The notes below the pieces were generated by a model, which saw nothing but the letters and a program-made list of their open reading frames with translations, was not told the DNA's origin and did no database searches. DNA of 64,000 bases from Candidatus Binataceae bacterium. Lineage in GTDB: Bacteria; Desulfobacterota; Binatia; Binatales; Binataceae. Each line of letters opens with the position of its first letter. Within the stretch, counting starts at the first letter, position 1. The stretch spans positions 56,367 to 120,366 of the forward strand of contig DATKML010000034.1 of the NCBI GenBank assembly GCA_035541875.1, read 5' to 3'. A program made the translations under genes and the position numbers. Shown one piece after another: positions 7,788 through 64,000 of the stretch.

Positions 7788-7854
7788 GCACTAGTCGTAG
7801 CCAGCCTAGCCCACCCGAGTCAAGTAGAACGCCATTATCAATGCGTTATGACTG

Positions 7855-10190: not shown

Positions 10191-10192
10191 TA

Positions 10193-49350: not shown

Positions 49351-49493
49351 TTAACCAAAACGCAATAAGCGACCTCTATCACGGCGGCTGTGCTGCCATA
49401 AACTCTAACCAATTGATTGCGGGGCTTCTCTGCATTTCTGGCAAGTGCATGCAAGTAGAGTTAGATCAACCTTATTTTAGAGAGGATGGAATA

Positions 49494-50255: not shown

Positions 50256-50286
50256 TATCACCCATCAAAGATCCAAGGAGACAATT

Positions 50287-52017
50287 GTGACCAAGCGAAT
50301 GAAAACCTGGAAGTGGCGGGTTGTCGGCGCCGTCCTGATCGCCACCCTGTCGCTGGCGGGGTTGACGCACCGTCTTTCTGCGCAGGCTTCCTCAGACAAA
50401 CCCAACATTCTGTTCGTCATGACCGATGACGTAGGTTGGATGACGCCGGGAGTCTACCACCAAGGCCTGATGGTGGGTGAAACCCCCAACATCGACCGTA
50501 TCGCTAAGGAAGGCGTGAAGTTCCTGGACGCCTACTCCGAGCAGAGCTGCACAGCCGGGCGTAACGCCTTCATGACCGGCATGAACCCGCTGCGTACGGG
50601 CCTGATCGTTCCGCAATTGCCCGGCAGCCCGAGTTGGCTGCGGTCCGGCACACCTTCGCTTGCCAAAATTCTGCTCGACCTCGGCTATAACACAGGCCAG
50701 TTCGGCAAGAACCATCTGGGCGACAACGTAGAGGCGCTACCGACCGCGCACGGCTTCCAGGAGTACTGGGGTTACCTCTACCACCTAGACGCGATGCAGC
50801 AGGTGAGCTTCCCCGATGTCTACAAAGACAAGGACACGATCGGCGTCGCCCCGCCGTGCAAGGCGACCTCGATCCCCGGCGTCCCCGACGATCCTAATGC
50901 GGTGGACCCGGCGACGACGACCTGTCTAACGCCGCCGCGGCCCGTACTTTGGTGTCACTCCGCGGACGGCACGCAGGCCAAACAGACCTGCAAGGATGAG
51001 GGTCCGGTTACTGACGTTCGCTCAGAAACCCTGGAGGAGGAGGTTTCGGCGAAGGTGATCGACTTCCTGGACCGCAACGACCCCAAAAAGACCGGCAAGC
51101 CGTTCTTTGCGTACTACAACACGGTGCGGATGCACGTCGACACGTTTCTGCCTAAAAAATACCTCGACATGCTGGGCACGCGGGGTGGCAAGGACTGGGG
51201 CATCAACGAAGCTGGCGAGAAGCAGATGGACGACAACCTCGGCTACGTGCTGAAGAAACTCGAGGACATAGGCCAGCTCGACAACACGATCATCATTTGG
51301 ACCTCTGACAACGGCGCCCAGACCCAAACCTATCCGGACGGCGGGATCACCCCCTTCAAAGGCGATAAGCTGACGACTTGGGAAGGCGGGATGCGCGTGC
51401 CGTTGCTTGTGCGTTGGCCAGGACACATCAAGCCTGGTACGGTCACAAACCAGATTTTCTCGATGCTGGATTGGTTGCCTACGCTGGTCAACATTGCGGG
51501 TGGCCCCAAGGGCGACGGTCTAAAGAAAAAGATCGAGGCCGGCCAGTATCCGGGCTTCTTGAAGACCACGCTCGACGGTTTTGACCAGCGTGATTTCCTG
51601 GAAGGCAAGTCCGATTCCGCGCGCGACCACCTCTTCTACTACACGGGCACCATACCGTCAGCAGTGCGGTATAAGAACTGGAAAATGTACTATACGATGG
51701 AAGGCTCGACATCCGCAGGCGCGCTCAAAGGGGCCCAGAGCTATGGCTGGACCCAGATGACCAATCTAATGCGGGATCCGTTTGAGCAGAATGTCGGCGA
51801 TGTTCAAAAGTCGGCCACGTCGATCGGTGGCGCGATTACCTCGCCGAGCACAGCTTACCTCTATGACTGGCAGATGCTGCCCATAGGGCAGTTGCTGTGG
51901 ATGAAGGAACTCGAGACCTACCGGAAGTTCCCACCGTTGCAAGTACCGGCGTCCTACAACCTCGACGAAATCGAAAAGTTGATCGCAGCCCAGGCAAGCC
52001 ACTCGCATAGTGATTAA
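50287..52017 (+). CDS. Arylsulfatase (formylglycine-dependent sulfatase family), secreted.
   Basis: It has a signal peptide. The sulfatase signature is SCTAGRNAFMTG (C-x-A-x-R). The metal ligands are MTDDVGW. Confidence 0.85.
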   Translation: MTKRMKTWKWRVVGAVLIATLSLAGLTHRLSAQASSDKPNILFVMTDDVGWMTPGVYHQGLMVGETPNIDRIAKEGVKFLDAYSEQSCTAGRNAFMTGMNPLRTGLIVPQLPGSPSWLRSGTPSLAKILLDLGYNTGQFGKNHLGDNVEALPTAHGFQEYWGYLYHLDAMQQVSFPDVYKDKDTIGVAPPCKATSIPGVPDDPNAVDPATTTCLTPPRPVLWCHSADGTQAKQTCKDEGPVTDVRSETLEEEVSAKVIDFLDRNDPKKTGKPFFAYYNTVRMHVDTFLPKKYLDMLGTRGGKDWGINEAGEKQMDDNLGYVLKKLEDIGQLDNTIIIWTSDNGAQTQTYPDGGITPFKGDKLTTWEGGMRVPLLVRWPGHIKPGTVTNQIFSMLDWLPTLVNIAGGPKGDGLKKKIEAGQYPGFLKTTLDGFDQRDFLEGKSDSARDHLFYYTGTIPSAVRYKNWKMYYTMEGSTSAGALKGAQSYGWTQMTNLMRDPFEQNVGDVQKSATSIGGAITSPSTAYLYDWQMLPIGQLLWMKELETYRKFPPLQVPASYNLDEIEKLIAAQASHSHSD

Positions 52018-52046
52018 CCGTGCAGCGCGCGCCTGCAGCTAGAAGC

Positions 52047-52075
52047 GGGCGACCCTAAGAGGGTCGCCCTTCGCG
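52047..52075 (+). terminator. Hairpin after the sulfatase gene.
   Basis: GGGCGACCCT-AAG-AGGGTCGCCC is a 10-bp stem. The downstream T-tract is imperfect. Confidence 0.4.
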
Positions 52076-52164
52076 CTTTAGAGAGGACGTACTAGTACCT
52101 AACAACGCACCTCCGGTTGCTCCGGGATCAGCACGGAGGTTAACTCAACACAGGAACTAAGCCA

Positions 52165-53202
52165 ATGATGAGATCACTTACCCGTGCCCGTCCCTCTCAG
52201 ACGGCTACGGTATTAGCGCTCCTGATCACGCTGCTGGCGGCGCGAGCGAACGCTCAGAATGACCCACTGCCGTCCTGGAACGAGGGCCCGGCCAAGCAGT
52301 CAATCATAACCCTCGCGAAGGATGTCACGGATAAGTCGAGCCCCTCGTATGTAGAACCACAAGATCGCATCGCCACCTTCGACCAGGACGGGACTCTCTG
52401 GGTTGAACACCCGATATACACACAGGTGGCCTTCGCGCTTGACCGTGTGGTGGAATTGGCGCCGAAGCATCCGGAGTGGAAAGCCACTGAGCCCTTCAAG
52501 GCGGTTCTCACTGACGACAAAGCCGCCATGGCCAAGTTTACGCTCCGCGACTTCGAAAAGATTATTTTCGCGACCCACACTGGCATGACCGTGGAACAAT
52601 TCAATGCGATCGCCAAGGATTGGATCGCCAAAGCCAGAAATCCGCGATGGAAGAGGCCCTATACTGACCTTGTATATCAGCCGATGCGAGAGGTTCTCGA
52701 CTATCTGCGGGCTAATGGCTTCAAGACCTACATCGTTACGGGGGGTGGTCAGGACTTCGTTCGGTCTTACGCGGTGCAAACCTACGGCATACCGCCCGAG
52801 CAGATTATTGGGTCGGCGCTCGAGACCGATTACACCTATAACAAAGAAGGTCAGGGGATATTGATGCGGCCTCCCAAGGTGTTGCTTAACAACAACTTCT
52901 CGGGCAAGCCGGAAGACATCTATCTGTTCACCGGGCGTCGTCCTCAGGCCACATTCGGCAATTCGACTGGCGACAGGGAGATGCTGGAATACACCCAAAC
53001 TGGCGGCAAGGAGGCGTTGATGATGCTGGTACTTCACGATGATCCGACCCGCGAGTATGCCTACGGCCCGGCTCAAGGGCTGCCGGATACCAAGGTCGGT
53101 ACTTTTTCGAAGGCACTGTATGACGAAGCGAGGACCCGAGGCTGGAACGTCATCAGCATGAAAAAGGATTGGAAACGAATCTTCGCCTTTGACCCCCAAT
53201 AG
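52165..53202 (+). CDS. Secreted HAD-superfamily hydrolase (putative phosphatase).
   Basis: It has a signal peptide. HAD motif I is FDQDGTLW. The later motifs are YIVTGGG and FGNSTGD. Confidence 0.65.
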   Translation: MMRSLTRARPSQTATVLALLITLLAARANAQNDPLPSWNEGPAKQSIITLAKDVTDKSSPSYVEPQDRIATFDQDGTLWVEHPIYTQVAFALDRVVELAPKHPEWKATEPFKAVLTDDKAAMAKFTLRDFEKIIFATHTGMTVEQFNAIAKDWIAKARNPRWKRPYTDLVYQPMREVLDYLRANGFKTYIVTGGGQDFVRSYAVQTYGIPPEQIIGSALETDYTYNKEGQGILMRPPKVLLNNNFSGKPEDIYLFTGRRPQATFGNSTGDREMLEYTQTGGKEALMMLVLHDDPTREYAYGPAQGLPDTKVGTFSKALYDEARTRGWNVISMKKDWKRIFAFDPQ

Positions 53203-53259
53203 ACCAGACTGATATCGCCCTCGGTCCAGCGGGCGACAACACCGACTTCGAGGATACTG

Positions 53260-55341
53260 ATGAATCTGAGTGCCGTTTTTCGCTGTGTCCGAGCAGCAAG
53301 CCGATTGTGCCTTGCGATTTCGGTCGTGATGTTCGCAATCTCAGGGTTTGGCCGGGCTTGCGCGGCCGACAGCATTGAAGGTCGCGTGCTTGGCGGAGGC
53401 GCGCCGATCGTCAAATCAACTGTGACCCTATGGTCCGCGAGTGCCGATGCGCCCAAGCAGTTAGCGCAGACACAGACCGGCGATAACGGTCACTTTACGC
53501 TGAGCGCAGAGGGATCCGCTGATGGCAGCCTTTATCTGGTGGCGACCGGCGGGGAGCCCACTGCCAATAGGGGCGGCGGGAACAACCCGGCGATTGTGCT
53601 CATCGCTGTCCTCGGCAGCAAACCGCCGGCCAAAGTCACGATCAACGAGTTCACGACCGTGGCCTCGGTGTGGACTAACGCCCAGTTTCTGGAAGGCAGC
53701 GTACTCCAGGGTCACGCGCTAGGGTTGCGAATCGCGGCCGGCAATGTGCCCAATTTCGTCGACCTCGGGAGCGGCGGTTACGGGCCGATGATTGAGGACG
53801 CCCTCAACAGCAGCCAGACCCCGACGATGGCGAATTTTGCCACCCTCGCCAACGTATTGGCGGGTTGCGTCACACAGGTGAAGGCTGATGCCTGCAGCAG
53901 CTTATTCGCTGCGGCGACGCCCCCGAGCGGACAGGTTCCGATCGATACGCTGACTGCGGCTGAGTCAATCGCTCGGAATTCTGCGTACCAGCCGAGTAGG
54001 ACGTTCGCATTGCTGAATACCTTTTATCCAGTTCCGAAGGGTAAGCAGCTACGCGTTACGCCGTTTCTGCCCTATCTTAGCTTCGCCCCGAGCGCGTGGG
54101 TCTTGCCTCTTAAGTTCGCGGGCGGTGGTTACATCGGTGGCGCCAAAGTGATGTTCGACAGTGAAGGTAACGCATGGAGCGGCGCCAATTTCATAGTTGG
54201 TTCGCAGGGGCACGATGCCCTCTGGGACGGCAATATGTCGGAGTTCGCTCCGAATGGCCGACCGCTTTCGCCGATGACTACGGGCTTTCATGGCGGCGGT
54301 CTGCAAGGCCCCGGGTTCGGTACCGCGATTGACGCCAACGACCGCGTCTGGATCGACAGCACCAGCGGAAGGACGATCTCGCTGTTCGACCACCAGGGTC
54401 AGCCGCTGTCGCCGCCTGAGGGCTACAACTTCGGCGGGAAGCTCGGCTACATGCAGGGCGTTATCGTTACGCCCAGTGGTGACGTCTGGGCAGTCGATTT
54501 CACCAACGACAGGGTGGTGTTCATGCCCAAGGGCGATCCTGCCAAGGCCAAGTTCTATTGCGAGTCGACGAACGGTAAACCCAACAAGGACAGTCCGTGC
54601 AAGTTGAGCGGCCCGTTCCATCTTGTCATCGACCAGCAAGACCGGATTTGGATCGACAACGCGATCGGCGACACCGTGACCCGCTTCCCCGCGAGCGATC
54701 CCACCAAAGCCGAAGTGTTTCCAACTGGCGGCCACAGCGGCAAGGGTATGGCGGTCGACAGCAAGGGCAATGTCTGGATCACCAATACGTTGGGCGCTGG
54801 GATGACGCTCGCGACAAAACTCAAGCTGCTCGACCTGAAGCTCAGAGGGCGGATGGCAGACGCCGATCAACTGGTCCTCAGGAATCTGTTGGCGAAGCCC
54901 GGTTTAGGCAGCGTGTCGATGCTGCGACCAGACGGCAGCCCCGCACCGGGATCACCGTTCAATCCAGGCAGCATCTGGGGTGCTTGGGCTGTGTCGATAG
55001 ACGGTAACGACCACGTCTGGGTTTCCAATTTTGCGCCCGGCGGCGGCGTCAGCGAGTTGTGCGGTGCACGTACTGAGACCTGTCCGCCCGGCATGAAGAC
55101 CGGTGATCCGATTTCCCCGCCCGGCGGCTACAAGGGCGGTGGAATGCAAATGCTGGTGGATGCCTCGATCGACCCGGCTGGCAATGTCTGGGTGTCTAAT
55201 AACTGGCAGGATCCCGCGTCTTGCTACGGCAAGCCGGATGAGAGTCTTTCCACCCGCTGCGGCGGCCAAGGCATGACGGTCTTCTACGGCATGGCCAAGC
55301 CGGTGCGCTCGCCCCAGATAGGCCCAGCCCGCGGGTTCTAG
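53260..55341 (+). CDS. Secreted protein with an N-terminal carboxypeptidase-regulatory-like domain and a six-bladed NHL/Vgb-lyase-like beta-propeller.
   Basis: It has a signal peptide. An early GRVLGGGAPIVKSTVTLW beta-sandwich motif is present. Blade motifs recur: DRVWIDS, GDVWAVD, DRIWIDN, GNVWITN, DHVWVSN, GNVWVSN. Confidence 0.6.
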   Translation: MNLSAVFRCVRAASRLCLAISVVMFAISGFGRACAADSIEGRVLGGGAPIVKSTVTLWSASADAPKQLAQTQTGDNGHFTLSAEGSADGSLYLVATGGEPTANRGGGNNPAIVLIAVLGSKPPAKVTINEFTTVASVWTNAQFLEGSVLQGHALGLRIAAGNVPNFVDLGSGGYGPMIEDALNSSQTPTMANFATLANVLAGCVTQVKADACSSLFAAATPPSGQVPIDTLTAAESIARNSAYQPSRTFALLNTFYPVPKGKQLRVTPFLPYLSFAPSAWVLPLKFAGGGYIGGAKVMFDSEGNAWSGANFIVGSQGHDALWDGNMSEFAPNGRPLSPMTTGFHGGGLQGPGFGTAIDANDRVWIDSTSGRTISLFDHQGQPLSPPEGYNFGGKLGYMQGVIVTPSGDVWAVDFTNDRVVFMPKGDPAKAKFYCESTNGKPNKDSPCKLSGPFHLVIDQQDRIWIDNAIGDTVTRFPASDPTKAEVFPTGGHSGKGMAVDSKGNVWITNTLGAGMTLATKLKLLDLKLRGRMADADQLVLRNLLAKPGLGSVSMLRPDGSPAPGSPFNPGSIWGAWAVSIDGNDHVWVSNFAPGGGVSELCGARTETCPPGMKTGDPISPPGGYKGGGMQMLVDASIDPAGNVWVSNNWQDPASCYGKPDESLSTRCGGQGMTVFYGMAKPVRSPQIGPARGF

Positions 55342-55451
55342 TTTCTGAACACACCAAAGGTGACCCAGGGCACGGGATCGCAAGCTCGATCAGACTGATC
55401 GAATTGTCGGACGTAACCGGACGTAACTACTATAAGAGCGGAGGCTGTTTT

Positions 55452-56315
55452 TTGAAATTTCGATGCACGAGGGCGATTGTTCTGGTCGGGCTTCTTGGCA
55501 TGGTGCTCGTTGCTCCCGTCTCGGCGCAAGCGAACGACGACAAATCGCTGGACGAAGTCAACAAGCAGCTCTCGAATCCGATTTCGAGCATCTGGGCACT
55601 ACAGCTTCAGGAGAACACCTACTGGCTGAACAACCCCGAGCGTAACGCGGTGAACCTTCAATTTCAGCCGGTGCTACCGTTAGCACTGACTGACGATTGG
55701 AATCTAATCACGCGGCCGGTGTTCCAGGTAATGAACTCTTCGCCGTACGTCAACGAGACCGGTAATCTTCATCGCGTGACCGGCTTCGGTGACACGATCC
55801 TGGCGACGATGCTCTCGCCTAGTCCGAAGCTAGCGGGTCCGTGGCTGCTGGGCGCAGGTCCTAGTTTCATCCTTCCTACCGCGAGTAATTCTCGCCTTGG
55901 GCAGAACAAATGGCAGTTGGGGCCGTCAGGCGTGTTCGGTTACCTGGGCGACAAATGGATCGCCGGCGTATTTCCCCAGCAGTGGTTCTCGGTCGGTGGC
56001 CCAGGTCCTCAGACCGTTAGTCAGATGAACATCCAGTACTTTTTCCAATATTTTCCGGGCAAAGGCTGGGGCATCGGGACGTCACCGAACATGCTCGTTA
56101 ACTGGTATGCCAGCAAGAGCGCGAACGACATTACGTTTCCTATCGGGATGCAAATCAGCAAAGTGATCAGGATTGGCCCGCTTCCTGTGAAATTTGCCGT
56201 TCAAGGCCAGTACATGCCCGTCCATCCGGAGGAATTCGGCCAGAAGTGGAATCTACAGTTCGCGGTGACTCCGGTTATCCCGAAGCTGATCAAAGGGAAT
56301 CTCTTCGGCGATTGA
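55452..56315 (+). CDS. Outer-membrane beta-barrel protein (transporter-like; MetA/phenol-pathway OMP-like).
   Basis: The TTG start at 55452 follows GGAGG. The signal peptide is MKFRCTRAIVLVGLLGMVLVAPVSAQA. It shows an alternating amphipathic strand pattern and a C-terminal aromatic residue. Confidence 0.5.
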   Translation: MKFRCTRAIVLVGLLGMVLVAPVSAQANDDKSLDEVNKQLSNPISSIWALQLQENTYWLNNPERNAVNLQFQPVLPLALTDDWNLITRPVFQVMNSSPYVNETGNLHRVTGFGDTILATMLSPSPKLAGPWLLGAGPSFILPTASNSRLGQNKWQLGPSGVFGYLGDKWIAGVFPQQWFSVGGPGPQTVSQMNIQYFFQYFPGKGWGIGTSPNMLVNWYASKSANDITFPIGMQISKVIRIGPLPVKFAVQGQYMPVHPEEFGQKWNLQFAVTPVIPKLIKGNLFGD

Positions 56316-56383
56316 CGCACGCTGGCAATGTGGCGTTGAAACAAACCGACTTTGACAGCTGTTTCGTCCAAGGACAAAGCAAT

Positions 56384-57169
56384 TTGCACTACTTCAAGCG
56401 AAATCCTTCCCGCGTAATCTCGCTGTTTCTCATCAGCGTTTTGCTGCTCACCACTCGGTCCGCTCGTGCACAGGGGGTTGTGCTCCCACTCCCGGCAGCG
56501 GATCAGCAGATGATCTCTGCTCAGCTTGGTCCGGGTATCGTGGGCGCCGCATTGCCGAGTGTTCCGATCGCGGACGTTTCGACTTACTTTCCACTTCAGG
56601 AGAAAGCTTCGAACTATCAGGTCACAAGTGGTCCGAACGTTGGAAACACGCAAACACTTGGCCTCGCCAAAGTCAGACGTCCGGGCGGGAAGCTGGCTTG
56701 GCGCTTTCAGTTTTCGCCCTCGCTGGCTGGCTTCATCAAGCAGACTGCGCAGGGCGACCTGATTATCCCGGCTGTCGGCGACATGGCGGAGGGCGTGGTG
56801 GTTATCACCACGCCGGCCAATCCCTTTATGCTCAAAGGCATGAAGCCCGGCGAATCCCGGTCTTACACGCAACAGGTCGTGGTTAATGCGCTGGATGACC
56901 CGGCGAACCAAGAATACTCAGGGTCATTAAACGGGATCTACACCTACCTGGGAACGTACCAGGTGAAAGTACCGGCCGGCAGCTATGCGGCCGTGCTTCT
57001 ACGTCTGAAGTGCGAAGGCAAGGTCGGTCCGGCCCAGACCAACGACACAGCTTATTACTTCTTCGCGCCCGGCAAGGGCATGATAGCAATGATCAGCCAG
57101 GAGGATGCGACCGCATTCTGGATAATCCATATCGACACCACATCCGGCAAAGTGCTTACGGCCAACTGA
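56384..57169 (+). CDS. Hypothetical secreted protein.
   Basis: An internal TTG start yields the signal peptide ...RVISLFLISVLLLTTRSARAQG. The listed N-extension overlaps the upstream gene. Confidence 0.45.
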   Translation: MHYFKRNPSRVISLFLISVLLLTTRSARAQGVVLPLPAADQQMISAQLGPGIVGAALPSVPIADVSTYFPLQEKASNYQVTSGPNVGNTQTLGLAKVRRPGGKLAWRFQFSPSLAGFIKQTAQGDLIIPAVGDMAEGVVVITTPANPFMLKGMKPGESRSYTQQVVVNALDDPANQEYSGSLNGIYTYLGTYQVKVPAGSYAAVLLRLKCEGKVGPAQTNDTAYYFFAPGKGMIAMISQEDATAFWIIHIDTTSGKVLTAN

Positions 57170-57266
57170 GTAGCCTCACTAAATAACTCCAGGGTCCCGC
57201 CTTCAGGTTGGTCTTCCTCCAATATTTCCTTTCGATCTGAATCGCGTCAGCAACCGCGGCGACCCT

Positions 57267-57728
57267 ATGGACATACAAATGCAGTCAGCCACCATAGGCG
57301 CCTGGAGTGGCAACTGGGCTTGGAGCCTCCCAATAATCGTTCTCAACGTGATGATTCACGTGACGGTCCTCGCTTTCGTCAACGAAAAGCTCGACGGCGT
57401 AATGAGCGGTGTAGTGGGTCGTCGGGACCGTATGCCGCGATTCGCACTGGTTATGGGCGCGACGACTCTATTGGCGACAATGCTTCATGGGATTGAGGCA
57501 TTCATCTGGGCGGCTGCATACCGCGCTTTGGACTCTTTACCCGACTACAAATCCGCGATGCTTTATTCGCTCAGCGCAATGACGAGTTATGGTCACGCGA
57601 ATCTATATCTCGATCCCCAGTGGCAAATGATGGGTGCTCTAGAAGCGCTGAACGGAATGCTGCTACTCGGATTAACCACCGCCTTTCTGTTCTCGATGAT
57701 CCGGAAGATTTCACAGGCCCCTGGGTAG
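57267..57728 (+). CDS. Small membrane protein with a two-TM pore-domain-like topology (ion-channel-like).
   Basis: It has TM1, then a pore-helix-like LYSLSAMTSYGHANLY (compare K-channel TMTTVGYGD), then TM2. The filter is degenerate. Confidence 0.4.
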   Translation: MDIQMQSATIGAWSGNWAWSLPIIVLNVMIHVTVLAFVNEKLDGVMSGVVGRRDRMPRFALVMGATTLLATMLHGIEAFIWAAAYRALDSLPDYKSAMLYSLSAMTSYGHANLYLDPQWQMMGALEALNGMLLLGLTTAFLFSMIRKISQAPG

Positions 57729-57885
57729 AATTGGACATAGCAATGACTGAGGTTATACGGGCGAGCATTGTGTCGCTGCCTCCGCTGGCAAAATTCGCGG
57801 TCGGAATGTCGATAATTGTGGTCGTGCCGCCGCTTTGTCGTCGCATCAAGCTATCGGCAGGGCACCGAGGCGTTGTTTACTGCTC

Positions 57886-58314
57886 TCATCCAGTATGATG
57901 GAGTGGGTTCACTGAGCTTTGGACGCTGCCTTGAGCCATCAACCAAGGACCGCCCACGGGCTGGTCGGGATCGTAACCGATGATTTCGACTTGCTCCTCG
58001 GCGCCGTCACGCAGCTTCAGGAAGCCCCAACTCAGCATAATCGGCTTCGCCCAGAGTACTTCCGGAAGAGTCGCAACCCTCTTAACACTGGCGTCGTTGA
58101 AGAGCTTGGCGAAATCGACGTTGCGAATGCCCTTTGAGGCGATCCAGATATCGGCTCCTGAAGCGTGGCGGATGAGCGAGGTCGCGTTGCCCATCATCCC
58201 GATGTACAGGCCTACCTCAACGATAGTTAAGAACGGCGATATGACTACTCCGCCCAGCGTGACCGCGAGGCGTAAGCGATTGTAGAGACTCATCCGCAGC
58301 GCCAGCCATAGCAC
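57886..58314 (-). pseudogene. Truncated DevC/FtsX-like ABC transporter permease (N-terminal 142 aa only).
   Basis: The N-terminal TM plus the start of the periplasmic domain (LWLALRMSLYNRLRLAVTLGGVVISPF...GADIWIASKG) resemble DevC/MacB-type permeases of about 390 aa. The ORF ends prematurely and no continuation exists in any frame. Confidence 0.5.
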
Positions 58315-58341
58315 GGATTCGTAACCTTTCTTGCCTGCTAG

Positions 58342-58953
58342 TCAGTGGGCCGATGAGTGCGCCGGAGCATCCCAGGCGACGTGTCCAACTGCCGTCACAT
58401 CGAGGTCGACCTGTTTGGCTACGGAAAGGAAAAGGATGCTCGGATCTTTCATGCCCCACGCCACATAAGGGATCACAAACTGGGTATGAGCCGTGAGTTC
58501 ATTGCCCACTAACTTGCCTTGTAGATCGATACCCTGTGGATGCTCCATACCGTGGATTAGGAGAGTTCCGTCGAGGTGAGCAGAAAAGTAACCGTCCTCG
58601 CCGAGGGAGCCAGTCACATGACGAGCGGTAAAGACGATAGTCGGATACTTGGAGGATTCAAGCACCTCGCGGTTCATGTTTGCGTCGCGCGAGGGCATCT
58701 GGCTGTCGCCGCTGGTTGCATCAATTACTACGGACCCATTCGCTGTGCTTGTTGTGGGATCGGCAGCGATCGTTCCCTGCGTAAGCTTGAACGTACCGTG
58801 AGTATCGTGGAGCGCACCCGGTAAGCTGAACTGGATGATAGTTCGCGCGGGATCGAGCGTGACGGTTCCAGCGCGTGGTTCGGCTGCTAAAGCGTGGCTA
58901 CGCCAACCGAGCGAGGCCGCGACGTAGAGGCAGGCAACGCTCCTATATAACAT
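58342..58953 (-). CDS. YceI-like periplasmic (polyisoprenoid-binding) protein.
   Basis: It has a signal peptide and an 8-strand lipocalin-like YceI pattern. It overlaps the upstream aminotransferase by 11 nt. Confidence 0.7.
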   Translation of the reverse strand: MLYRSVACLYVAASLGWRSHALAAEPRAGTVTLDPARTIIQFSLPGALHDTHGTFKLTQGTIAADPTTSTANGSVVIDATSGDSQMPSRDANMNREVLESSKYPTIVFTARHVTGSLGEDGYFSAHLDGTLLIHGMEHPQGIDLQGKLVGNELTAHTQFVIPYVAWGMKDPSILFLSVAKQVDLDVTAVGHVAWDAPAHSSAH

Positions 58954-60304
58954 TGATTACCCGCCGGGCCGTGTTCAGTGCCTCCGTCCAGAAGCTGGTC
59001 GAACTATGCATCAGATCGACTACACGCTCGAGCGCATCGGCGAACTGCGCCAATTGCGCTTCGGTGATCACGAGCGGTGGTGCAATCTTCAAGACCATGA
59101 AATTGTTGCCGCAAATCTGGCTGAAGATACCTTCGCGAAACAGCCGCATCACAACGACCTGGCCAAACATCGCGGGATGAATCCGGGCAAAGGCTTCGAA
59201 CAGGATACGCAAACGGAGTTTTTTGGGTGCACGAAACTCGATTCCGGAGAGCATCCCGCGACCGCGAATGGCTTTGATCATGTCGTATTTCTGAAAGCGT
59301 GAGGTGAGGTTCTCGCGGAAGCGCTCACTCATACGCTCCGCGCGCGCACCGAGGTCACCGTCCATGAGAACCTCCAGAGTGGCCAATCCCGCACGCATCG
59401 CGAGTCCGTTTTCACCGTAAGTCGATGCATGAATCATTGATCGCTTGAAAGAGGTGAAGACGGAATCGTAGATCGGATCCCTCATCAGCACTGCCGCTGA
59501 CGGCACCAGTCCCCCACTCATCGCCTTGGCCATGATCACCATGTCCGGCTCGACACCGAAATGGTGTGCGGCAAGGAACGGTCCCGTCCGAAACATCCCG
59601 GTCTGAACCTCGTCGAGCACCATCAAAGTGCCATATCGTCGGCAGAGTTCGGAGGCCTTTTGCAGATAGTCTGCCGATGGCACGAGCACACCTGACTCGG
59701 CCTGAATCGGCTCAAGGATAAAAGCGCCAAAGCGGCGCGATGCCAAGCGAGTCTTCAGCGCTTCCAAATCACCGAAGGGGACCGGCTCGGTGTCGGGCAA
59801 CAACGGACCAAAATCGGCCGTCCAGAACGGGTTATCCATCAAAGATAGCGCACCGCAGGTCAAGCCGTGAAAGCCACCCGAGGCATACAGGATGCCGGGA
59901 CGTTTGGTGTGAGCGTGGGCGAACTTGATGACCGTTTCGACCCCTTCACTCCCGGAGCTGCAAAAATAGACTTTGGATAACTTACCGCCGGCATTGGTAC
60001 AAAGTCGCAACGCTAGTTCGCCGGCCAGTTCAGGAACATGACCCTGCAACATCGCGGGGCCGTTGCCGTCAAGTTCCTCCTTTAGGGCGCGAATCACCGC
60101 CGGATGATTGTGGCCGATATTGTGCACGCAGTAACCGGAATTGAAATCGAGGATGCTGCGTCCATCTTCAGTGTAAAGCTCAGCACCGAGACAGCTCTTG
60201 TAGCGCACATTCATATCGAGAACGTCCAGGAACCGCACCCATTGGGGATTAACGTGATTCTCGTAGGGTTCCTGACTATTGGCGGGCAGTTTGGAAGCGA
60301 GCAT
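58943..60304 (-). CDS. Class III PLP-dependent aminotransferase.
   Basis: The PLP-Lys region is DEVQTGMFRTG...MAKAMSGG and the fold-type I class III pattern is present. Confidence 0.85.
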   Translation of the reverse strand: MLASKLPANSQEPYENHVNPQWVRFLDVLDMNVRYKSCLGAELYTEDGRSILDFNSGYCVHNIGHNHPAVIRALKEELDGNGPAMLQGHVPELAGELALRLCTNAGGKLSKVYFCSSGSEGVETVIKFAHAHTKRPGILYASGGFHGLTCGALSLMDNPFWTADFGPLLPDTEPVPFGDLEALKTRLASRRFGAFILEPIQAESGVLVPSADYLQKASELCRRYGTLMVLDEVQTGMFRTGPFLAAHHFGVEPDMVIMAKAMSGGLVPSAAVLMRDPIYDSVFTSFKRSMIHASTYGENGLAMRAGLATLEVLMDGDLGARAERMSERFRENLTSRFQKYDMIKAIRGRGMLSGIEFRAPKKLRLRILFEAFARIHPAMFGQVVVMRLFREGIFSQICGNNFMVLKIAPPLVITEAQLAQFADALERVVDLMHSSTSFWTEALNTARRVINVI

Positions 60305-60347
60305 AAGAAATTTACCTCTTATCGCGAGTGCCGCACTCGGACATTGA

Positions 60348-60806
60348 TCATTGCGGACCAGAACTAATCTGTGTCGCCAGCCACGCGCGCAGAGCCTGTT
60401 TTTCAGCGTTGCTCAGGCGCGCACTATGATCGAGCACTGTGTAGTTTCCGGGCGGCATCGAGCCGTTATTGATCGTCGATTCGATACTCTTCAGTTGGGT
60501 CTGCTGATGATGTGCGTCGTAGGTCGACCAATCTGAAAAATTGAGAGCCTGCCGCGCGGAACCAGCAGCCATGTAAGCTGGAGATAGAGCTGCGTACCAC
60601 GGCGCAGTGCCTGTCGTGCTGTGGCAGGTGTAGCACGATCGTTCGAGAATCTGATGAATGCGCGGATCTGTCGTAACTCCGCCATGCGAGGAGTTCGCGA
60701 GCTTCGTCGGCACCGATGAACTCTCCTGGGGTGTCGAACAAGCAGAGAGAAAAGATGCTCCAGCGACAACAAACAGTAGTCCGCAAAGGGGGCTGCGTTT
60801 GATCAT
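60348..60806 (-). CDS. Haem-binding-domain lipoprotein (CxxCH; Haem_bd-like).
   Basis: The lipobox is FLSACS. The single CYTCH motif is followed by a conserved W/Y-rich stretch. Confidence 0.6.
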   Translation of the reverse strand: MIKRSPLCGLLFVVAGASFLSACSTPQESSSVPTKLANSSHGGVTTDPRIHQILERSCYTCHSTTGTAPWYAALSPAYMAAGSARQALNFSDWSTYDAHHQQTQLKSIESTINNGSMPPGNYTVLDHSARLSNAEKQALRAWLATQISSGPQ

Positions 60807-60865
60807 GATAAATCAGCCATTCCTCATTGTCGGATGGTGTGCGATCGGTGAAGCCTTTCGACTCA

Positions 60866-62038
60866 TCAGCTTGCCGTTGCCATCATCGCCATCGCGATTC
60901 GCGCAATCGTTCCCGTCAGTCGCCGTCTTCGCGAGAGATAATGAATCACTCGTCGTCGCGTACCGGGGCGCCTGGCGAGAAACAGCATTGCCTTGGTCGC
61001 TATGGCATAACCACGGAATAAACGGTGAGCTTCGCGCTCGTACGGCTCAAGACTTTTCTCGCTGCTGTTGGCCTGAAGCAATGCCGAAAGATGGCGACCC
61101 AAGATAAGCGCCGAATTGAACGCGATCGAAAGCCCATCGCCCGCAATCGAATCAACAAAGCCAGCCGCGTCGCCGATTAGAACGAAGCGTTCCGCAACGC
61201 GGCGACTGACGCCGCAAGCCATCGGTCCAGCGCCTTTCGGCATCGATATTGGCTCAGCGTCCTGGAGCCGCGTATTAAGCAGCGGAAAGCGTGTAAGCAA
61301 AGTGGGAATCGTCGGCCGGTAGAACGCGCCATCCTGCCATGTGAAGTTGACCGAGACTGTGTCCGCAGTGACCGGCGTGACTACGGCTTCGCCAAACGCG
61401 TCGACGTAAACCTCAACGGACTCAGACCATGGCGTGGTCAAAAAATGCTGTCGGAGTGCAAAGCGCCGTGGAAGCGAGCTGACACAGTGCAAACCAGCAC
61501 CACGCCGGAAGAGCGAATGAAGACCGTCAGCAGCAACGACGAGGCTTGCGTGCACAGCGGGGCCAGCTGTTCGTAGTATCGCACCGTCCTTTTCGACTTT
61601 AATGTTGGTGACATTGGTCGCGTAACGGACGGCCACTCCAAGCTGCTGAGCTCGCTGCGTCAGCGCTTTCAGCAGGGTTGTGCGCCGGATTCCCAAGCCG
61701 CCTCCTTGAGGGAGGGGAACTTCGACAGACGAACCATCTTCCTGGAAAAAGTGGATGCCCCTGAAGGATCGGACCTCGGTGTCGTCGAGATGCGCCAACA
61801 CCCCCAAGCGCCGTAAAGCTTCGACACCCGGAGGCAGGACGCCCTCGCCACACGCCTTGTCAGCGGCGAACCCACGCCGCTCCAAAACTATAACGCTCCG
61901 CCCCGCCGCGGCCGCGACGATTGCCGTGGCCAGGCCCGCGGGACCGCCACCAATGACGGCAATGTCGTAACGAGATCGATCGGTCGATAGGTCGCCCTGA
62001 TCTAATCGCGCGTCCGCCGTTATTGGGTGGATTACCAT
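60866..62038 (-). CDS. FAD-dependent oxidoreductase / flavoprotein monooxygenase (geranylgeranyl-reductase-like fold).
   Basis: The motifs are YDIAVIGGGPAGLATA (GxGxxG) and GDAAGFVD. There is a 7-nt overlap with the upstream type III PKS stop. Confidence 0.8.
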   Translation of the reverse strand: MVIHPITADARLDQGDLSTDRSRYDIAVIGGGPAGLATAIVAAAAGRSVIVLERRGFAADKACGEGVLPPGVEALRRLGVLAHLDDTEVRSFRGIHFFQEDGSSVEVPLPQGGGLGIRRTTLLKALTQRAQQLGVAVRYATNVTNIKVEKDGAILRTAGPAVHASLVVAADGLHSLFRRGAGLHCVSSLPRRFALRQHFLTTPWSESVEVYVDAFGEAVVTPVTADTVSVNFTWQDGAFYRPTIPTLLTRFPLLNTRLQDAEPISMPKGAGPMACGVSRRVAERFVLIGDAAGFVDSIAGDGLSIAFNSALILGRHLSALLQANSSEKSLEPYEREAHRLFRGYAIATKAMLFLARRPGTRRRVIHYLSRRRRLTGTIARIAMAMMATAS

Positions 62039-63120
62039 TGCAACAGCAGCAACTCGCCGCAGAACCCGGGACCCATCGAGAGGAGCAGGCCATACTCACC
62101 GGAACGCGGTTTGGCTGATTGCATGAAGTCCTCGGCTACGAAGAGCACCGATGCCGACGACAGGTTTCCGATAGCTGCCAGGGACTTCCAAGATCCGGCG
62201 AGGCTGCATCGAGGTAGCTCAAGTGCCTCCTGCATCGCCTGCAAGACCTTGGGGCCCCCAGTGTGCGCAATCCAATGTTTAATCGACTCGCGTGAGAGTT
62301 TGTTTTGTGCAAGAAACTCGTCGGCGACTACACGCAGATTGGTTCGGATTAAGTGGGGAACACCGGGGGCAAGAACGATCTCGAAACCGGTTTCGCGCAT
62401 CCGCCAACCCATCATCTCTTCGGTGTCGGGAAAAAAGACTGACTGCGAACTGACAATCCGTGGGCATCGTGGTCCGGCTGGATTACGCCCGCCGGTTACG
62501 ATCGCAGCTGCAGCCCCGTCAGCAAACAGTCCTGAGGCAATCAGGTTGGCGGTCGATCGATCTTTGAGTTGCAGCGTCAGAGAGCAGAGTTCGACACTGA
62601 CCAAAAGAGCGACCTGATCGGGAAACGCGCGAACATAATCTGCTGCGCGTGCGAGACCAGCAGCTCCGCCTACACAGCCGAGGCCAAAGAGGGGCGTCCG
62701 CTTTATATCGGTGCGCATCCCAAGGCGATTGATCAATTTGGCGTCGATACTCGGTGAGGCGATCCCGGTGACCGTCGTGAAAAAAATATGGTCGATATCT
62801 GCAGGAGCCATTCCGCCCGCGCTTAATGCGTTGCGCACAGCCGCCTCGCCCAGTTCCGCAGCTCGTTCGATCCAACGATCATTGGCCTTACCGAACGAAT
62901 CAATCGCGCGATATTCCTCGATAGGAAGTGCCAAGTGACGCCCTCGAACACCAACGGACTTGTGCAGTCGTTCAAACCGAGTGCGATCCCGGACAGAGCC
63001 GCCCCATTCGTTCCATAGAGCCGATGATAGGACTTCTTGCGAATAATAATTTGCAGGTAGCGCAGTGCCGATCGCGGTTAGCGCCGGTATATTTCCTTCC
63101 GTCTTAGCGAAACCAAGCAT
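62032..63120 (-). CDS. Type III polyketide synthase (chalcone/stilbene synthase superfamily).
   Basis: The active-site Cys lies in LFGLGCVGGAAGL. Downstream His/Asn regions are present (WIAHTGGPKVL, GNLSSASV). The protein is 362 aa. Confidence 0.85.
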   Translation of the reverse strand: MLGFAKTEGNIPALTAIGTALPANYYSQEVLSSALWNEWGGSVRDRTRFERLHKSVGVRGRHLALPIEEYRAIDSFGKANDRWIERAAELGEAAVRNALSAGGMAPADIDHIFFTTVTGIASPSIDAKLINRLGMRTDIKRTPLFGLGCVGGAAGLARAADYVRAFPDQVALLVSVELCSLTLQLKDRSTANLIASGLFADGAAAAIVTGGRNPAGPRCPRIVSSQSVFFPDTEEMMGWRMRETGFEIVLAPGVPHLIRTNLRVVADEFLAQNKLSRESIKHWIAHTGGPKVLQAMQEALELPRCSLAGSWKSLAAIGNLSSASVLFVAEDFMQSAKPRSGEYGLLLSMGPGFCGELLLLQW

Positions 63121-63387
63121 TGAGATCCCTTCATGTCGCCGTGCGCGCCGATCAAAACCAAGGGTGACGCAAGCGAACTGTAACGGTTGGACAAGATTTG
63201 TGCCTTTTCGATTTAGCGAATCGTAATATGACGGAACGACAAGGCGCCGCTCATAGACGACAAGCCAATGCGAAGGGATTCAAAAATTTGAATGATAGGC
63301 ATCTATGACGTACAAGTATTTGAACAATTTTTTTTGCTGCCGATCGAAGCGCACTCAGTAAGCTTCGTCAGAGTTTTATCAGCAAGA

Positions 63388-64000
63388 TGAGCGCCTCAAT
63401 TCCAACGACCCCAATGTTTCTCGAAGGGACGGGTGGCCTTCGGTTTTTCCGGGCACAGGAGCGTGATTTCGCGACTCTCAACCTGATGCTTATCGCGGCA
63501 GTTCTGGTAATGCAGATCCTTTCGCGAATCGAGCAAGGAAAGCCGACGACATCGCATATATTAGTGTTGAGCGTCGGGCTCTTTGCGCAAACGGCACAAT
63601 TGTTTTGGCTCGCGAACGAAGGTCCCGAGTTGTCGCCAGCCAAGCGCCGCTTTCTACCTTTCTGGATCATCGGGCTGAACTCCGCCCTCGCACTGACGCT
63701 GAGTTCACTCGAAATCGGTGGTGACACCGCCTATTACGCTCTGATGCTTCTGCCAATCCTCGAGTCTGCCTTCAGGCTAACGTTGGCCTGGACAGCAGCA
63801 GTGGTCGCGCTCGCAGACCTTATCTGCTTCACGGGAGCCTATGGCCTGAAGTTCGATGAATACCTGGAGGCGAGCGCCTCGACGATAGTATTCACCGTCA
63901 TGGGAGTACTGGTTTGGTTGCTAGTGGATGGTCTCCGCAAAGGCGAAGCCGGTTTCATCAGCAACTTGAAGGAGCTTGAACGCGCCAGAGAACGGCTGCT
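63388..64000 (+). CDS. Membrane sensor protein (probable sensor histidine kinase N-terminus); the 3-prime end runs off the window edge.
   Basis: The frame is open from ATG 63388 to the window edge, with at least 5 hydrophobic helices followed by a coiled-coil linker (LKELERARERL). It is divergent from the PKS operon. The listed minus ORF 63368..63727 is the antisense image. Confidence 0.45.

Follow-up and report, generated by a model that had tools for sequence, protein, structure and literature searches.

What does a soil bacterium make with a five-gene operon of the phenolic-lipid type, in which a type III polyketide synthase (PKS) and a flavoprotein are packed together with an aminotransferase, a lipocalin and a haem-binding lipoprotein? 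We addressed this question within the window (the whole stretch of 64 kb that was analyzed) and by comparison with related loci in other genomes.

Operon organization and core enzymes

The five open reading frames lie on the minus strand and code for a type III PKS (positions 62032-63120, 362 aa), an SrsC-like FAD enzyme (60866-62038, 390 aa), a Haem_bd CxxCH lipoprotein (60348-60806, 152 aa), a class III aminotransferase (AT; 58943-60304, 453 aa) and a secreted YceI lipocalin (58342-58953, 203 aa). Two of the junctions are overlaps, of 7 nt between the end of the PKS gene and the beginning of the FAD gene and of 11 nt between the end of the AT gene and the beginning of YceI; the remaining two intergenic gaps measure 59 and 43 nt. 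The first-pass annotation had described this packing and both overlaps, and all of the reading frames are where it placed them; the five identities that it proposed are each backed by a Pfam match. A sixth gene on the same strand, 27 nt downstream of YceI (57886-58314), is what remains of a truncated gene for an ABC permease of the MacB/FtsX type. Its 142-aa reading frame retains only the N-terminal periplasmic core domain (MacB_PCD, E = 3e-4) and is broken by a frameshift followed by a stop, with an out-of-frame continuation that ends in ILDESSKQRLGALPIA and a stop codon; the remainder of the gene is missing. Homologs of the remnant (62 to 69% identical) are located directly 3' of the FAD gene in two other loci (L040 and L101).

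The PKS matches Chal_sti_synt_N (E = 2e-23) and Chal_sti_synt_C (E = 1e-19) and, judging by sequence, belongs to the clade of long-chain alkylresorcinol/alkylpyrone synthases. Its top PDB match is Pks11 of Mycobacterium tuberculosis (E = 1.4e-91), followed by CylI, and each of the 60 PDB relatives listed is a type III PKS. The catalytic triad (C149, H286 and N319) is invariant in 109 homologs, and Trp239, at the cyclization-determinant ("resorcinol") position, is kept in 108 of them and aligns with a Trp of Pks11. This position, Trp281 in ArsB and Trp243 in CepA, is taken in the literature to determine resorcinol formation, and Pks11 has been grouped with the resorcinol-forming enzymes (PMC7064976). 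The protein is 65 to 76% identical to its Binatia relatives and 48 to 50% identical to Streptomyces srs-type PKSs, and in a distance tree (quick neighbor joining, without support values) it stands beside Pks11 and the Streptomyces enzymes, far from RppA-type THNS. Grouping with FabH-like enzymes, which the first-pass annotation had named as fatal to its interpretation, was rejected, as FabH models score 80 bits against a cutoff of 292 and the PDB relatives and tree position agree.

The flavoprotein (FAD_binding_3, E = 6e-25) has the geranylgeranyl-reductase/group-A monooxygenase fold, with GG-red-SF at 124 bits, under its cutoff of 159. At least 90% of 69 aligned family members share the motif D60-K61-x-C63-G64-E65-G66, which is also found in the Streptomyces enzymes at the srsC position. 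In the Streptomyces microflavus locus, which has the order PKS-ICMT methyltransferase-FAD, the PKS is 49% and the FAD enzyme 37% identical to those of the window, which together with the common motif bears out the likeness to srsA/srsC first noticed in the bare sequence. We can thus assign the FAD enzyme, from sequence, to the family of the srsC-position enzyme of Streptomyces PKS-MT-FAD operons. Enzymes of the srsC type have been described as the hydroxylase giving the benzoquinone (PMC9927152, PMC8086630).

Aminotransferase linkage and conservation of the gene set

The AT (Aminotran_3, E = 5e-85; catalytic residue K260) is nearest to the transaminase domain of PigE, from the prodigiosin MAP pathway (PDB 4PPM, E = 2e-84), and to the Escherichia coli putrescine aminotransferase YgjG (E = 7e-64). 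The catalytic lysine and the PLP-binding region align with both, whereas the C-terminal domain is divergent. The PigE model (385 bits) is matched over its C-terminal domain only, and the N-terminal reductase domain, the maker of the aldehyde substrate in PigE, is absent from the AT by the same match. A family-invariant lysine, K406, stands where PigE has an arginine (VIRIQPPL motif); in class III aminotransferases, an arginine at this position binds the carboxylate of the co-substrate, so the reaction of the AT may be atypical. A set of 71 AT orthologs is 60 to 75% identical, and the orthologs used for the neighborhood comparison are 62 to 76% identical.

Around the AT, the 20 well-flanked loci (at least 4 kb on both sides) contain the FAD enzyme in 19 cases, YceI in 18, the PKS in 16 and the Haem_bd protein in 7; a methyltransferase is found in none, nor does the ICMT type of the srs, pkq and hid operons adjoin any of these 20 orthologs. 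Around the PKS, 59 well-flanked loci have the FAD enzyme (43), a methyltransferase (18), YceI (16) and the AT (9), and across both sets (59 + 20) AT and methyltransferase are mutually exclusive. In our locus, the search for a nearby methyltransferase, which had been suggested at first reading, found none, ICMT-type or other, in the 64-kb window or up to 10 kb beyond it. Lineages differ in gene order and strand and keep the adjacency. In about one-fifth of the well-flanked AT-FAD-YceI loci, no PKS gene was seen within 8 kb, so the substrate of this trio need not come from a neighboring gene. Acidobacterial versions code for a secreted TPR-like protein, and some have a small cytochrome c or quinone oxidoreductase nearby. 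The genes are conserved as a set, recovered from both anchors in dozens of independent contigs and in several phyla of soil bacteria; a lack of such conservation was the other outcome that the first-pass annotation had named as fatal. Its "unusual combination" is a recurrent variant with AT and YceI in place of the methyltransferase.

The known systems closest to this arrangement are the alkylresorcinol-to-alkylquinone/hierridin operons srsABC (Streptomyces griseus), pkqABC (Mycobacterium smegmatis and Streptomyces sp. MNU77) and hidABC (cyanobacteria and Planctomycetota), which share its PKS clade, its flavoprotein family and the co-directional, tight packing of the two genes (PMC9927152, PMC10896814). 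Unlike them, the window operon lacks a methyltransferase, has an AT, YceI and a haem c lipoprotein, and would be under the control of a sigma-54 two-component system. The only published mention that we found of a lipoprotein and a lipid-binding protein with a type III PKS is the pentacistronic operon of "Saltatorellus ferox," similar by its description, with a putative lipoprotein and a lipid/isoprenoid-binding protein that are given no interpretation there (PMC10896814); it has two methyltransferases and neither aminotransferase nor flavoprotein. We found no published description or test of the AT/YceI five-gene set.

Predicted periplasmic components and divergent regulators

The Haem_bd protein (PF14376, E = 1.3e-26) has a lipobox (FLSAC, followed by S) and a single CxxCH haem c motif (CYTCH), with lipobox and CxxCHS kept in 12 homologs; a PDB search found no solved close relative. 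The homologs are stand-alone proteins of about 100 to 180 aa that adjoin YceI and an ABC-2 exporter, and the Haem_bd and YceI genes overlap in four loci (L164-L167). YceI (PF04264, E = 1e-18; weak PDB matches to Escherichia coli YceI [1Y0G] and TT1927b [1WUB]) carries a signal peptide, as do its homologs, and adjoins the FAD gene in Binatia and Acidobacteriota loci. The clusters of Binatia contain an ABC ATPase and an ABC-2 permease, and in this group a reusable back end is made up of Haem_bd, YceI, the ABC-2 exporter and a kinase paired with a sigma-54 regulator. The same back end (Haem_bd/YceI/ABC/kinase) also occurs with a front end that has neither PKS nor AT and consists of a di-iron FA_desaturase_2-like protein, a SAM methyltransferase, a DUF2306 protein and a different GGR-like flavoprotein, so that Haem_bd and YceI cannot be called polyketide specific. 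The ABC-2 exporter has been lost from the copy in this window, which, given this loss and the truncated downstream permease, may be partly decayed.

The pairing of a lipocalin with a haem protein is common to this operon and to LcoA-BcnA of Burkholderia (cytochrome b561 and a YceI lipocalin, involved in lipid-peroxyl-radical detoxification), to which the cytochrome b561-yceI operon of E. coli is the equivalent. In the published model, the quinone bound to the periplasmic lipocalin is re-reduced by the cytochrome (PMC9113575), and YceI lipocalins have ubiquinone-8 or polyisoprenoids as ligands and occur in genetic pairs with cytochromes (PMC9113575, PMC8981238). Here, however, the haem partner is a small c-type Haem_bd lipoprotein and not a membrane cytochrome b561, and the operon brings along genes for the synthesis of a lipid, which would make the ligand a polyketide lipid in place of ubiquinone-8. 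Cbp2D and Cbp2E (Cellvibrio japonicus and Saccharophagus degradans) also combine, outside the cytoplasm, a YceI-like quinone-binding module (X158) with single-CxxCH c-type cytochrome domains, for which electron transfer has been proposed (PMC8981238), but they are large, secreted proteins of several domains that include carbohydrate-binding modules and are linked to the oxidation of polysaccharides, whereas in our operon, one for lipid biosynthesis, each part is a small protein of its own.

On the plus strand, the reading frame that starts at 63387 and runs to the window end (63387-64000, 204 codons) encodes the N-terminal membrane part of a HisKA+HATPase_c kinase of 427 aa, as read from the full gene in two loci (L001 and L162), where it is followed by a 469-aa REC-Sigma54_activat-HTH_8 response regulator that lies beyond the window. 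The divergent membrane histidine kinase expected from the first reading is thus real. Its 204 codons contain several predicted transmembrane segments and no recognized sensor domain, and this N-terminal domain is 54 to 60% identical beside ten related clusters. The shared region (63121-63386, 266 bp), described earlier as AT-rich and of about 270 bp, falls in a 500-bp bin of 49% GC, compared with 54 to 63% in the flanking bins. It holds two palindromes, (A/G)T(T/A)CAA-N4-TTGAA(T/C), at 63278-63293 and 63310-63325, including the sole perfect TTCAA-N4-TTGAA of the 64 kb, with a one-mismatch copy 32 bp away. With up to one mismatch, this pattern has 5 matches in the window against 1.2 expected, a number reached in 0 of 100 shuffles, and both palindromes are invariant in an alignment with L083, L084, L091 and L092. 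A sigma-54-like -24/-12 element, AGGCACAAATCTTGT (63191-63205, minus strand), precedes the PKS start by about 70 nt; its -12 part is TTGT and not TTGC, and its pattern by itself is not above chance in a scan of the window. The same four loci have TGGCAGGCGGTTTGCT at this place. Scans for intrinsic terminators and sigma-70 promoters were uninformative.

Proposed pathway and competing explanations

We propose, with a probability of roughly 0.55, that the operon makes a tailored phenolic lipid by a variant of the srsABC/pkqABC/hidABC alkylresorcinol-to-alkylquinone pathway. Most likely, it builds a fatty phenol and oxidizes it, probably aminates it, and most likely hands it to a lipid carrier and a haem lipoprotein. 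From its family, the PKS would elongate a long-chain fatty acyl starter by malonyl units and cyclize the chain to an alkylresorcinol (or alkylpyrone), and the translationally coupled flavoprotein, by homology to SrsC, would hydroxylate the ring to a hydroxyquinol/hydroxyquinone head group. The AT would then take the tailoring role of the O-methyltransferase; its linkage is plain, and the conversion of a carbonyl to an amine seems the most likely chemistry, on either a quinone/keto tautomer or a side-chain ketone. A PLP transaminase that acts on a quinone ring would, as far as we know, be without precedent. The lipid would leave the cytoplasm, in relatives presumably through the ABC-2 exporter, and be held in the periplasm by the secreted lipocalin, with which the haem c lipoprotein may exchange electrons at the bound quinol/quinone, by analogy with other YceI-cytochrome pairs. 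Linkage and conserved sites suggest expression from the sigma-54 promoter, switched on by the divergent membrane kinase together with its NtrC-type regulator, the latter probably bound to the two palindromes.

An unlikely competitor is a structural or protective lipid of the alkylresorcinol type, inserted into the envelope to change its permeability or its resistance to stress, as in the cysts of Azotobacter and in Streptomyces griseus, with YceI as a mere periplasmic chaperone to the outer membrane and the haem protein and AT as non-redox accessories. The PKS clade, the SrsC-like enzyme, the known action of phenolic lipids in membranes (PMC7064976, PMC9927152), the ABC exporter with a secreted lipocalin and the acidobacterial TPR-like protein would all fit, but the swap of methyltransferase for AT, the conserved CxxCH lipoprotein overlapping YceI and the cytochrome c or quinone oxidoreductase near some acidobacterial versions are left unexplained.

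It is more doubtful that the AT-FAD-YceI trio acts on a substrate other than a polyketide made by the cell (an isoprenoid quinone, an aldehyde derived from a polyamine or alkylresorcinols that the cell takes up from soil), the PKS being a frequent but secondary neighbor. Trio loci that lack a PKS in flanks of up to 10 kb (e.g., L118, L122, L125, L130 and L156), some beside LacI-type regulators, point this way, as do the resemblance of the AT to putrescine aminotransferase, the relationship of the FAD enzyme to the geranylgeranyl reductase family and MenJ, and the binding of isoprenoid quinones by YceI proteins (PMC9113575). However, the FAD enzymes of PKS-less loci are nested among the PKS-linked ones (in a tree without support values), which suggests that the PKS was lost or moved repeatedly and not that the function differs; the FAD family is that of srs-type operons, the PKS and FAD genes overlap in the window and in relatives, and 16 of the 20 AT loci do have the PKS.

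Slightly less probable still is an exported antibiotic or signal, a nitrogen-containing alkyl aromatic such as an alkyl-pyridone or an aminophenol that would arise when a polyketide carbonyl is transaminated, with the kinase and regulator as feedback control. PigE-type transaminases, the best model and PDB matches of the AT, aminate alkyl carbonyl intermediates of secondary metabolites, and both ABC exporters and a dedicated two-component system accompany the cluster. Yet the PigE reductase domain is absent, no resistance or further tailoring genes were seen, and the conservation, which is broad and looks vertical through entire clades of Acidobacteriota and Binatia, is, together with the lipocalin and the haem lipoprotein, more suggestive of physiology than of a strain-specific antibiotic. 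Chance juxtaposition of unrelated packed genes is highly improbable and effectively refuted, given that dozens of independent contigs contain the set, reciprocally from two independent anchors in two collections, with overlapping start and stop codons and rearrangements that keep adjacency.

The phenolic-lipid pathway proposed above is thus our preferred explanation. As the AT set is conserved and the methyltransferase of the srs, pkq and hid operons never adjoins it, the cluster is, on sequence grounds, a separate variant of the alkylresorcinol-to-alkylquinone cluster, marked by AT and YceI, that occurs in Binatia, Acidobacteriota and some Alphaproteobacteria and whose product, if the predicted chemistry holds, would serve these bacteria as a periplasmic redox or antioxidant lipid system.

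Gene content and the polyketide core

The operon is made of five minus-strand genes, which code for a type III polyketide synthase (PKS, 62032-63120), an FAD enzyme (60866-62038), a Haem_bd protein (60348-60806), a class III PLP aminotransferase (58943-60304) and a YceI protein (58342-58953), and the ORF list agrees exactly with the positions that the first-pass annotation had assigned to them. In this list the PKS gene runs 7 nt into the FAD gene and the aminotransferase gene 11 nt into the YceI gene, with the remaining two intergenic gaps measuring 59 and 43 nt, and all five identities were confirmed by Pfam with scores far over threshold. Two public assemblies contain the DNA of the window, one as a Logan contig and the other as an ENA contig of 244 kb, and the nearest named relatives are 'Candidatus Binatus'/Binataceae MAGs. 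On L162, the fetched contig that holds the DNA of the window and its flank, the public calls for the PKS (10001-10903, 300 aa) and the Haem_bd protein (12222-12587, 121 aa) place the starts further downstream, cutting off conserved N-terminal sequence that includes the lipoprotein signal. As the homologues align over the longer N-termini, lipobox included, we consider the longer ORFs to be the better models.

The PKS contains the N and C Chal_sti_synt domains (83 and 71 bits against cut-offs of 27). A grouping with housekeeping FabH-like enzymes, the outcome that the first-pass annotation had regarded as fatal to its interpretation, did not appear, and such an enzyme was ruled out because FabH models score far under their cut-offs (80 bits against 292 for TIGR00747) and all the listed PDB matches are type III PKSs. 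The top NCBIfam model was DpgA of the dihydroxyphenylglycine pathway, which we also rejected, as its score of 191 bits falls short of the 425-bit cut-off and genes of the DpgB-D or HpgT type are absent. The best solved relative is Pks11 of M. tuberculosis (E = 1.4e-91), followed by the resorcinol-forming CylI, while the RppA-type enzyme THNS (3e-44) and plant CHS (about 1e-33) are much more distant than Pks11. The catalytic triad C149, H286 and N319 is invariant across 109 aligned homologues, Pks11 and THNS included, and W239, found in 108 of these 109, falls in the same alignment column as the Trp in the 'MGW' motif of Pks11, a column in which THNS has a Tyr. The site of ArsB Trp281 and CepA Trp243 mainly decides whether a resorcinol or a pyrone is formed, with Trp favouring aldol over lactone cyclisation (PMC7064976), and from its position we infer that W239 is the equivalent residue. 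In a neighbour-joining tree rooted on THNS, the PKS and its Binatia relatives form one clade that adjoins Myxococcota enzymes and lies inside the group holding Pks11 and the Streptomyces srs-type enzymes. This places it in the clade of long-chain alkylresorcinol/alkylpyrone synthases, among enzymes such as Pks11 and SrsA that use long-chain acyl starters, a use that we can also predict for the PKS of the operon.

Operons with a type III PKS, a flavoprotein and a methyltransferase make alkylquinones, which are alternative respiratory carriers or protective lipids. The FAD enzyme has the fold of the group-A monooxygenases and geranylgeranyl reductases, scores under every equivalog threshold and has distant PDB relatives (PyrE3, halogenases and aromatic hydroxylases). 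Its motif D60-K61-x-C63-G64-E65-G66 is kept in at least 90% of 69 aligned family members from the fetched loci, and DKACGEG also occurs in the srsC-position enzymes of Streptomyces, Terrabacter and Corallococcus loci. The S. microflavus locus (L059) has the srsABC layout, in which the PKS is followed by an ICMT-type methyltransferase with the motif RWLRHPNY and then by the FAD enzyme. As the PKS and the FAD enzyme of the window are 49% and 37% identical to those of this locus, and DKACGEG is common to both flavoproteins, the resemblance to an srsA/srsC core noticed in the first-pass annotation holds. The likeness to srsABC, pkqABC and hidABC lies in the type III PKS with an adjoining SrsC/PkqC/HidB-type FAD oxidoreductase, but the methyltransferase of these operons (the ICMT-type SrsB/PkqB, or HidA) is absent here. 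A methyltransferase nearby had been suggested as something to look for, and none turned up: an ICMT-type query gave no tblastn match anywhere in the 64-kb window, nor was there any methyltransferase among the Pfam-annotated genes up to 10 kb past it. The srsC-type enzyme is described as a hydroxylase which, together with the methyltransferase, converts alkylresorcinol to alkylbenzoquinone (PMC9927152, PMC8086630), and the same three-gene operon leads to polyketide quinones in mycobacteria and Streptomyces and to hierridins in cyanobacteria (PMC9927152, PMC10896814).

The aminotransferase and the conservation of the gene set

The aminotransferase matches Aminotran_3 with 286 bits (cut-off 30.5). 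It is most closely related to the PigE transaminase domain (4PPM, E = 2e-84) and to putrescine aminotransferase, enzymes whose substrates are aliphatic chains that end in an amine or an aldehyde. Its Schiff-base residue, K260, falls on the equivalent Lys of PigE and YgjG in the alignment, and the PLP-binding D231, in LDEVQTG, is also conserved. In class III aminotransferases, the Arg of the '...R-x-x-PPL' motif binds the alpha-carboxylate of the amino-acid or oxo-acid co-substrate. This expected Arg is not present here, as the enzyme reads VLK406IAPPL where PigE has VIRIQPPL, and the Lys is kept in at least 98% of 71 aligned orthologues. PigE has an N-terminal thioester-reductase domain fused to its transaminase, but the enzyme of the window lacks that domain and matches only positions 377-731 of the 837 of the PigE NCBIfam model (385 bits against a cut-off of 850).

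The conservation of the cluster was analyzed from two independent anchors, with all counts taken from tblastn coordinates and not from longest-ORF calls; in GC-rich loci the longest-ORF caller produced antisense 'shadow' ORFs (clusters c13, c29 and c32, and locus L066 in the FAD tree) and missed the PKS in 22 loci. The PKS-anchored scan of a genome collection gave 80 loci, and of the 59 with flanks of 4 kb or more at each end, 43 have the FAD enzyme as a neighbour, 18 an ICMT-type methyltransferase, 16 YceI, 9 the aminotransferase and 2 Haem_bd. Aminotransferases found beside these PKSs are 58-73% identical to that of the window, and aminotransferase and methyltransferase co-occur in none of the 59 loci. 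An aminotransferase-anchored scan of a metagenome collection likewise gave 80 loci, all 62-76% identical, 20 of which had at least 4 kb on both sides; here the FAD enzyme was present in 19, YceI in 18, the PKS in 16, Haem_bd in 7 and a methyltransferase in none. With a looser flank requirement, the FAD enzyme, YceI and the PKS were found in 46, 41 and 30 of 49 loci, respectively. The genes are thus conserved as a set, as the first-pass interpretation required, and the aminotransferase orthologue group is essentially dedicated to this cluster, which is a distinct aminotransferase/YceI variant of the srs/pkq/hid family.

The variant was found in three groups, Binatia, Acidobacteriota and Xanthobacteraceae-like Alphaproteobacteria. 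Its order in Binatia is PKS, FAD enzyme, ABC ATPase and ABC-2 permease (when present), Haem_bd, aminotransferase and YceI, and in many Acidobacteriota it is aminotransferase, PKS, FAD enzyme and YceI, often with a secreted TPR-like protein added. The Haem_bd gene changes strand between loci yet keeps its place beside the aminotransferase. That adjacency outlives rearrangement across phyla is strong evidence of functional coupling.

The TPR-like protein of the Acidobacterial versions (about 285 aa) lies between the aminotransferase and the PKS (L074:6508-7362 and 17 other loci). Some of these versions also have nearby a small cytochrome c with the motif CAVCH (L121:392-1099) or a zeta-crystallin-type quinone oxidoreductase (L107:7910-8896), neighbours that weakly fit a redox theme. 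A quinone oxidoreductase of the same type, 39% identical to one near some Acidobacterial clusters, is coded at 17176-18138 of the window, 40 kb away from the operon, with which it probably has no connection.

In the searchable literature we found no description of the aminotransferase/YceI(/Haem_bd) variant, its distribution or its modular back end (exporter, YceI, Haem_bd and two-component pair), and none joining a type III PKS with YceI, while searches for alkylresorcinols together with an aminotransferase or Acidobacteria returned genome-mining papers without this cluster. The PKS-flavoprotein core is already known; the variant is, as far as that literature shows, new. The nearest published hint of the lipoprotein and lipid-binding pairing is the type III PKS operon of 'Saltatorellus ferox', in which a lipoprotein and a lipid/isoprenoid-binding protein are mentioned in passing (PMC10896814).

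Extracytoplasmic proteins, export and regulation

The YceI protein (PF04264, 68.6 bits against a cut-off of 23.7, with weak matches to 1Y0G and 1WUB) starts with a cleavable N-terminal signal peptide ending in ...HALA|AE, and its homologues carry one too. The Haem_bd protein (PF14376, 93.6 bits against a cut-off of 27) combines a lipoprotein signal (…FLSAC|S) with the motif CYTCH, both kept in 12 of 12 aligned homologues, with CxxCHS invariant, so by domain and CxxCH motif it is a predicted c-type haem protein. YceI lipocalins bind ubiquinone-8 and polyisoprenoids, and a periplasmic cycle has been proposed in which their pairing with cytochrome b561 quenches radicals (PMC9113575); in Cbp2D a YceI-type module is paired with c-type cytochrome domains (PMC8981238). 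No Pfam match to the cytochrome b561 family was found in the operon genes and their immediate neighbours (57267-64000), nor in the public Pfam-annotated calls from 10 kb beyond the kinase to 10 kb past the PKS. In LcoA-BcnA a cytochrome b561 gene lies beside the YceI gene, whereas the haem partner in the window is a c-type lipoprotein instead.

In the closest Binatia relatives (L002, L084-L086, L091 and L092), an ABC ATPase and a 566-aa ABC-2 permease are coded between the FAD enzyme and Haem_bd. As no homologue of these exporter genes exists anywhere in the 64-kb window, its copy of the cluster has lost the exporter. An ORF at 57886-58314 (minus strand), 27 nt downstream of YceI, codes for the N-terminal periplasmic domain only of a MacB/FtsX-type permease, with a frameshift (...ILDESSKQRLGALPIA*) and then a stop, continuing to about 57830; in L040 and L101, homologues of this remnant immediately follow the FAD gene.

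A Haem_bd-anchored search returned 75 small stand-alone homologues, and inspection of their contigs uncovered a second type of cluster (L163:2103-9031, L164:1-6785, L165, L166 and L167), with the same back end and neither PKS nor aminotransferase. Its front end consists of a di-iron FA_desaturase_2-like protein, a SAM methyltransferase (PRK06202-like), a DUF2306 protein and a distinct GGR-like flavoprotein. The Haem_bd and YceI genes overlap, except in L163, where no YceI was called and tblastn puts it just after Haem_bd. The ABC-2 exporter is present, with an ATPase about 87% identical to that of a PKS-type cluster, and the kinase and sigma-54 regulator pair, seen in L163, is 66% (kinase) and 78% (regulator) identical to the window proteins. 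With the same parts behind different front ends, the Binatia back end is a reusable module that handles some class of hydrophobic product.

The kinase is transcribed divergently from the operon, starting at 63387 (plus strand). On L162 it is complete (8238-9521, 427 aa, HisKA and HATPase_c), and its gene overlaps by 4 nt that of a regulator with REC, Sigma54_activat and HTH_8 domains (6832-8241); the same pair occurs in L163. The N-terminal 200 residues of the kinase are membrane-embedded and matched no Pfam or NCBIfam model, and this region is 54-60% identical beside related clusters of three different gene orders. The shared 266-bp region between operon and kinase (63121-63386) contains the sole perfect TTCAA-N4-TTGAA palindrome of the 64 kb, at 63279-63292 (extended form ATTCAAAAATTTGAAT, 63278-63293), and a one-mismatch copy 32 bp off (63310-63325), an observed palindrome count matched by no shuffle. 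Both are invariant in an alignment with four related loci. The distant locus L112 has copies upstream of the PKS (6018-6031) and of a kinase-like gene (11606-11619), and in another locus one lies just upstream of the aminotransferase (L119:233-246).

In the relatives, a near-consensus sigma-54 promoter, TGGCAGGCGGTTTGCT, is found about 75 bp downstream of the PKS-nearer palindrome. Some 70 nt upstream of the start of the PKS, the window has AGGCACAAATCTTGT (63191-63205), with two mismatches and a -12 element of GT. A window-wide scan for TGGCAC-N5-TTGC with two mismatches allowed gave 60 matches against 59 expected, so the argument for the candidate site is its position, together with the near-consensus sites of the relatives, and not statistics. 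Scans for sigma-70 promoters and intrinsic terminators in 57000-63500 gave no more sites than shuffled sequence and are uninformative on co-transcription. The operon is probably sigma-54 dependent and controlled by the divergent two-component system.

Beyond the regulator, L162:3803-6466 (3-6 kb past the window end) codes for a BrnT/BrnA toxin-antitoxin pair and a 682-aa protein with a faint RE_NgoFVII restriction-endonuclease match and an Aq_aa27 domain, followed further on by luciferase-like monooxygenase, alpha/beta-hydrolase and COX2 genes, with no methyltransferase. Downstream of the operon, the neighbours at 46735-57728 look unrelated to it: a 153-aa membrane protein without family match (57267-57728, plus strand), two uncharacterised or weakly matching proteins (one to Phenol_MetA_deg, E about 0.01), a protein of 693 aa that weakly matches transthyretin-like and NHL-repeat families, a HAD hydrolase, a sulfatase and a GAF-LuxR regulator.

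A putative redox-lipid system

Taken as a pathway, the PKS would make an alkylresorcinol-type lipid, whose ring the flavoprotein may hydroxylate to a hydroxyquinol or quinone. The aminotransferase, judging from its dedicated linkage and its exclusivity with the methyltransferase, would provide an alternative tailoring step, probably the addition of nitrogen. By analogy with the known YceI systems, YceI would hold the exported lipid and the haem c lipoprotein would swap electrons with it. The most far-reaching reading, to which we give a rough probability of one in five, is that of a self-contained extracytoplasmic redox-lipid system, in which an N-substituted polyketide quinol/quinone, made in the cytoplasm by the PKS, the SrsC-like hydroxylase and the aminotransferase, would be exported, held in the periplasm by YceI and oxidised or reduced there by the haem c lipoprotein. 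Such a system would parallel, on a polyketide basis, the antioxidant system of ubiquinone, YceI and cytochrome b561.

The product could also be a purely structural lipid of the envelope, an explanation that we regard as unlikely. Less likely still is that the aminotransferase, FAD enzyme and YceI work as a trio on a non-polyketide substrate. Such trios do occur without a type III PKS within up to 10 kb (L102, L118, L119, L122, L124, L125, L130, L156 and others), but in the tree their FAD enzymes are interleaved among the PKS-linked ones, so that, on these contig-level data, repeated loss or relocation of the PKS fits better than a different function. Some of the PKS-less trios have a LacI-type regulator upstream. 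A secreted bioactive compound made by the same enzymes seems the most improbable of these explanations.

If the redox-lipid reading is true, the operon would show which class of ligand a YceI lipocalin natively binds, and would bring to light a new class of aminated bacterial phenolic lipids. The variant replaces the methyltransferase with a dedicated aminotransferase and adds a secreted lipocalin, to which Binatia also add a haem c lipoprotein and an exporter, and it points to an undescribed, probably nitrogen-bearing class of phenolic lipids. It also points to a specific candidate for what YceI lipocalins bind, their natural cargo and function being a matter of continuing debate, and to a modular back end (exporter, lipocalin, haem protein and sigma-54 two-component system) that is joined to different lipid-making front ends. 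The variant is widespread in Acidobacteriota and Binatia, which are among the most abundant and least cultured groups of soil bacteria.
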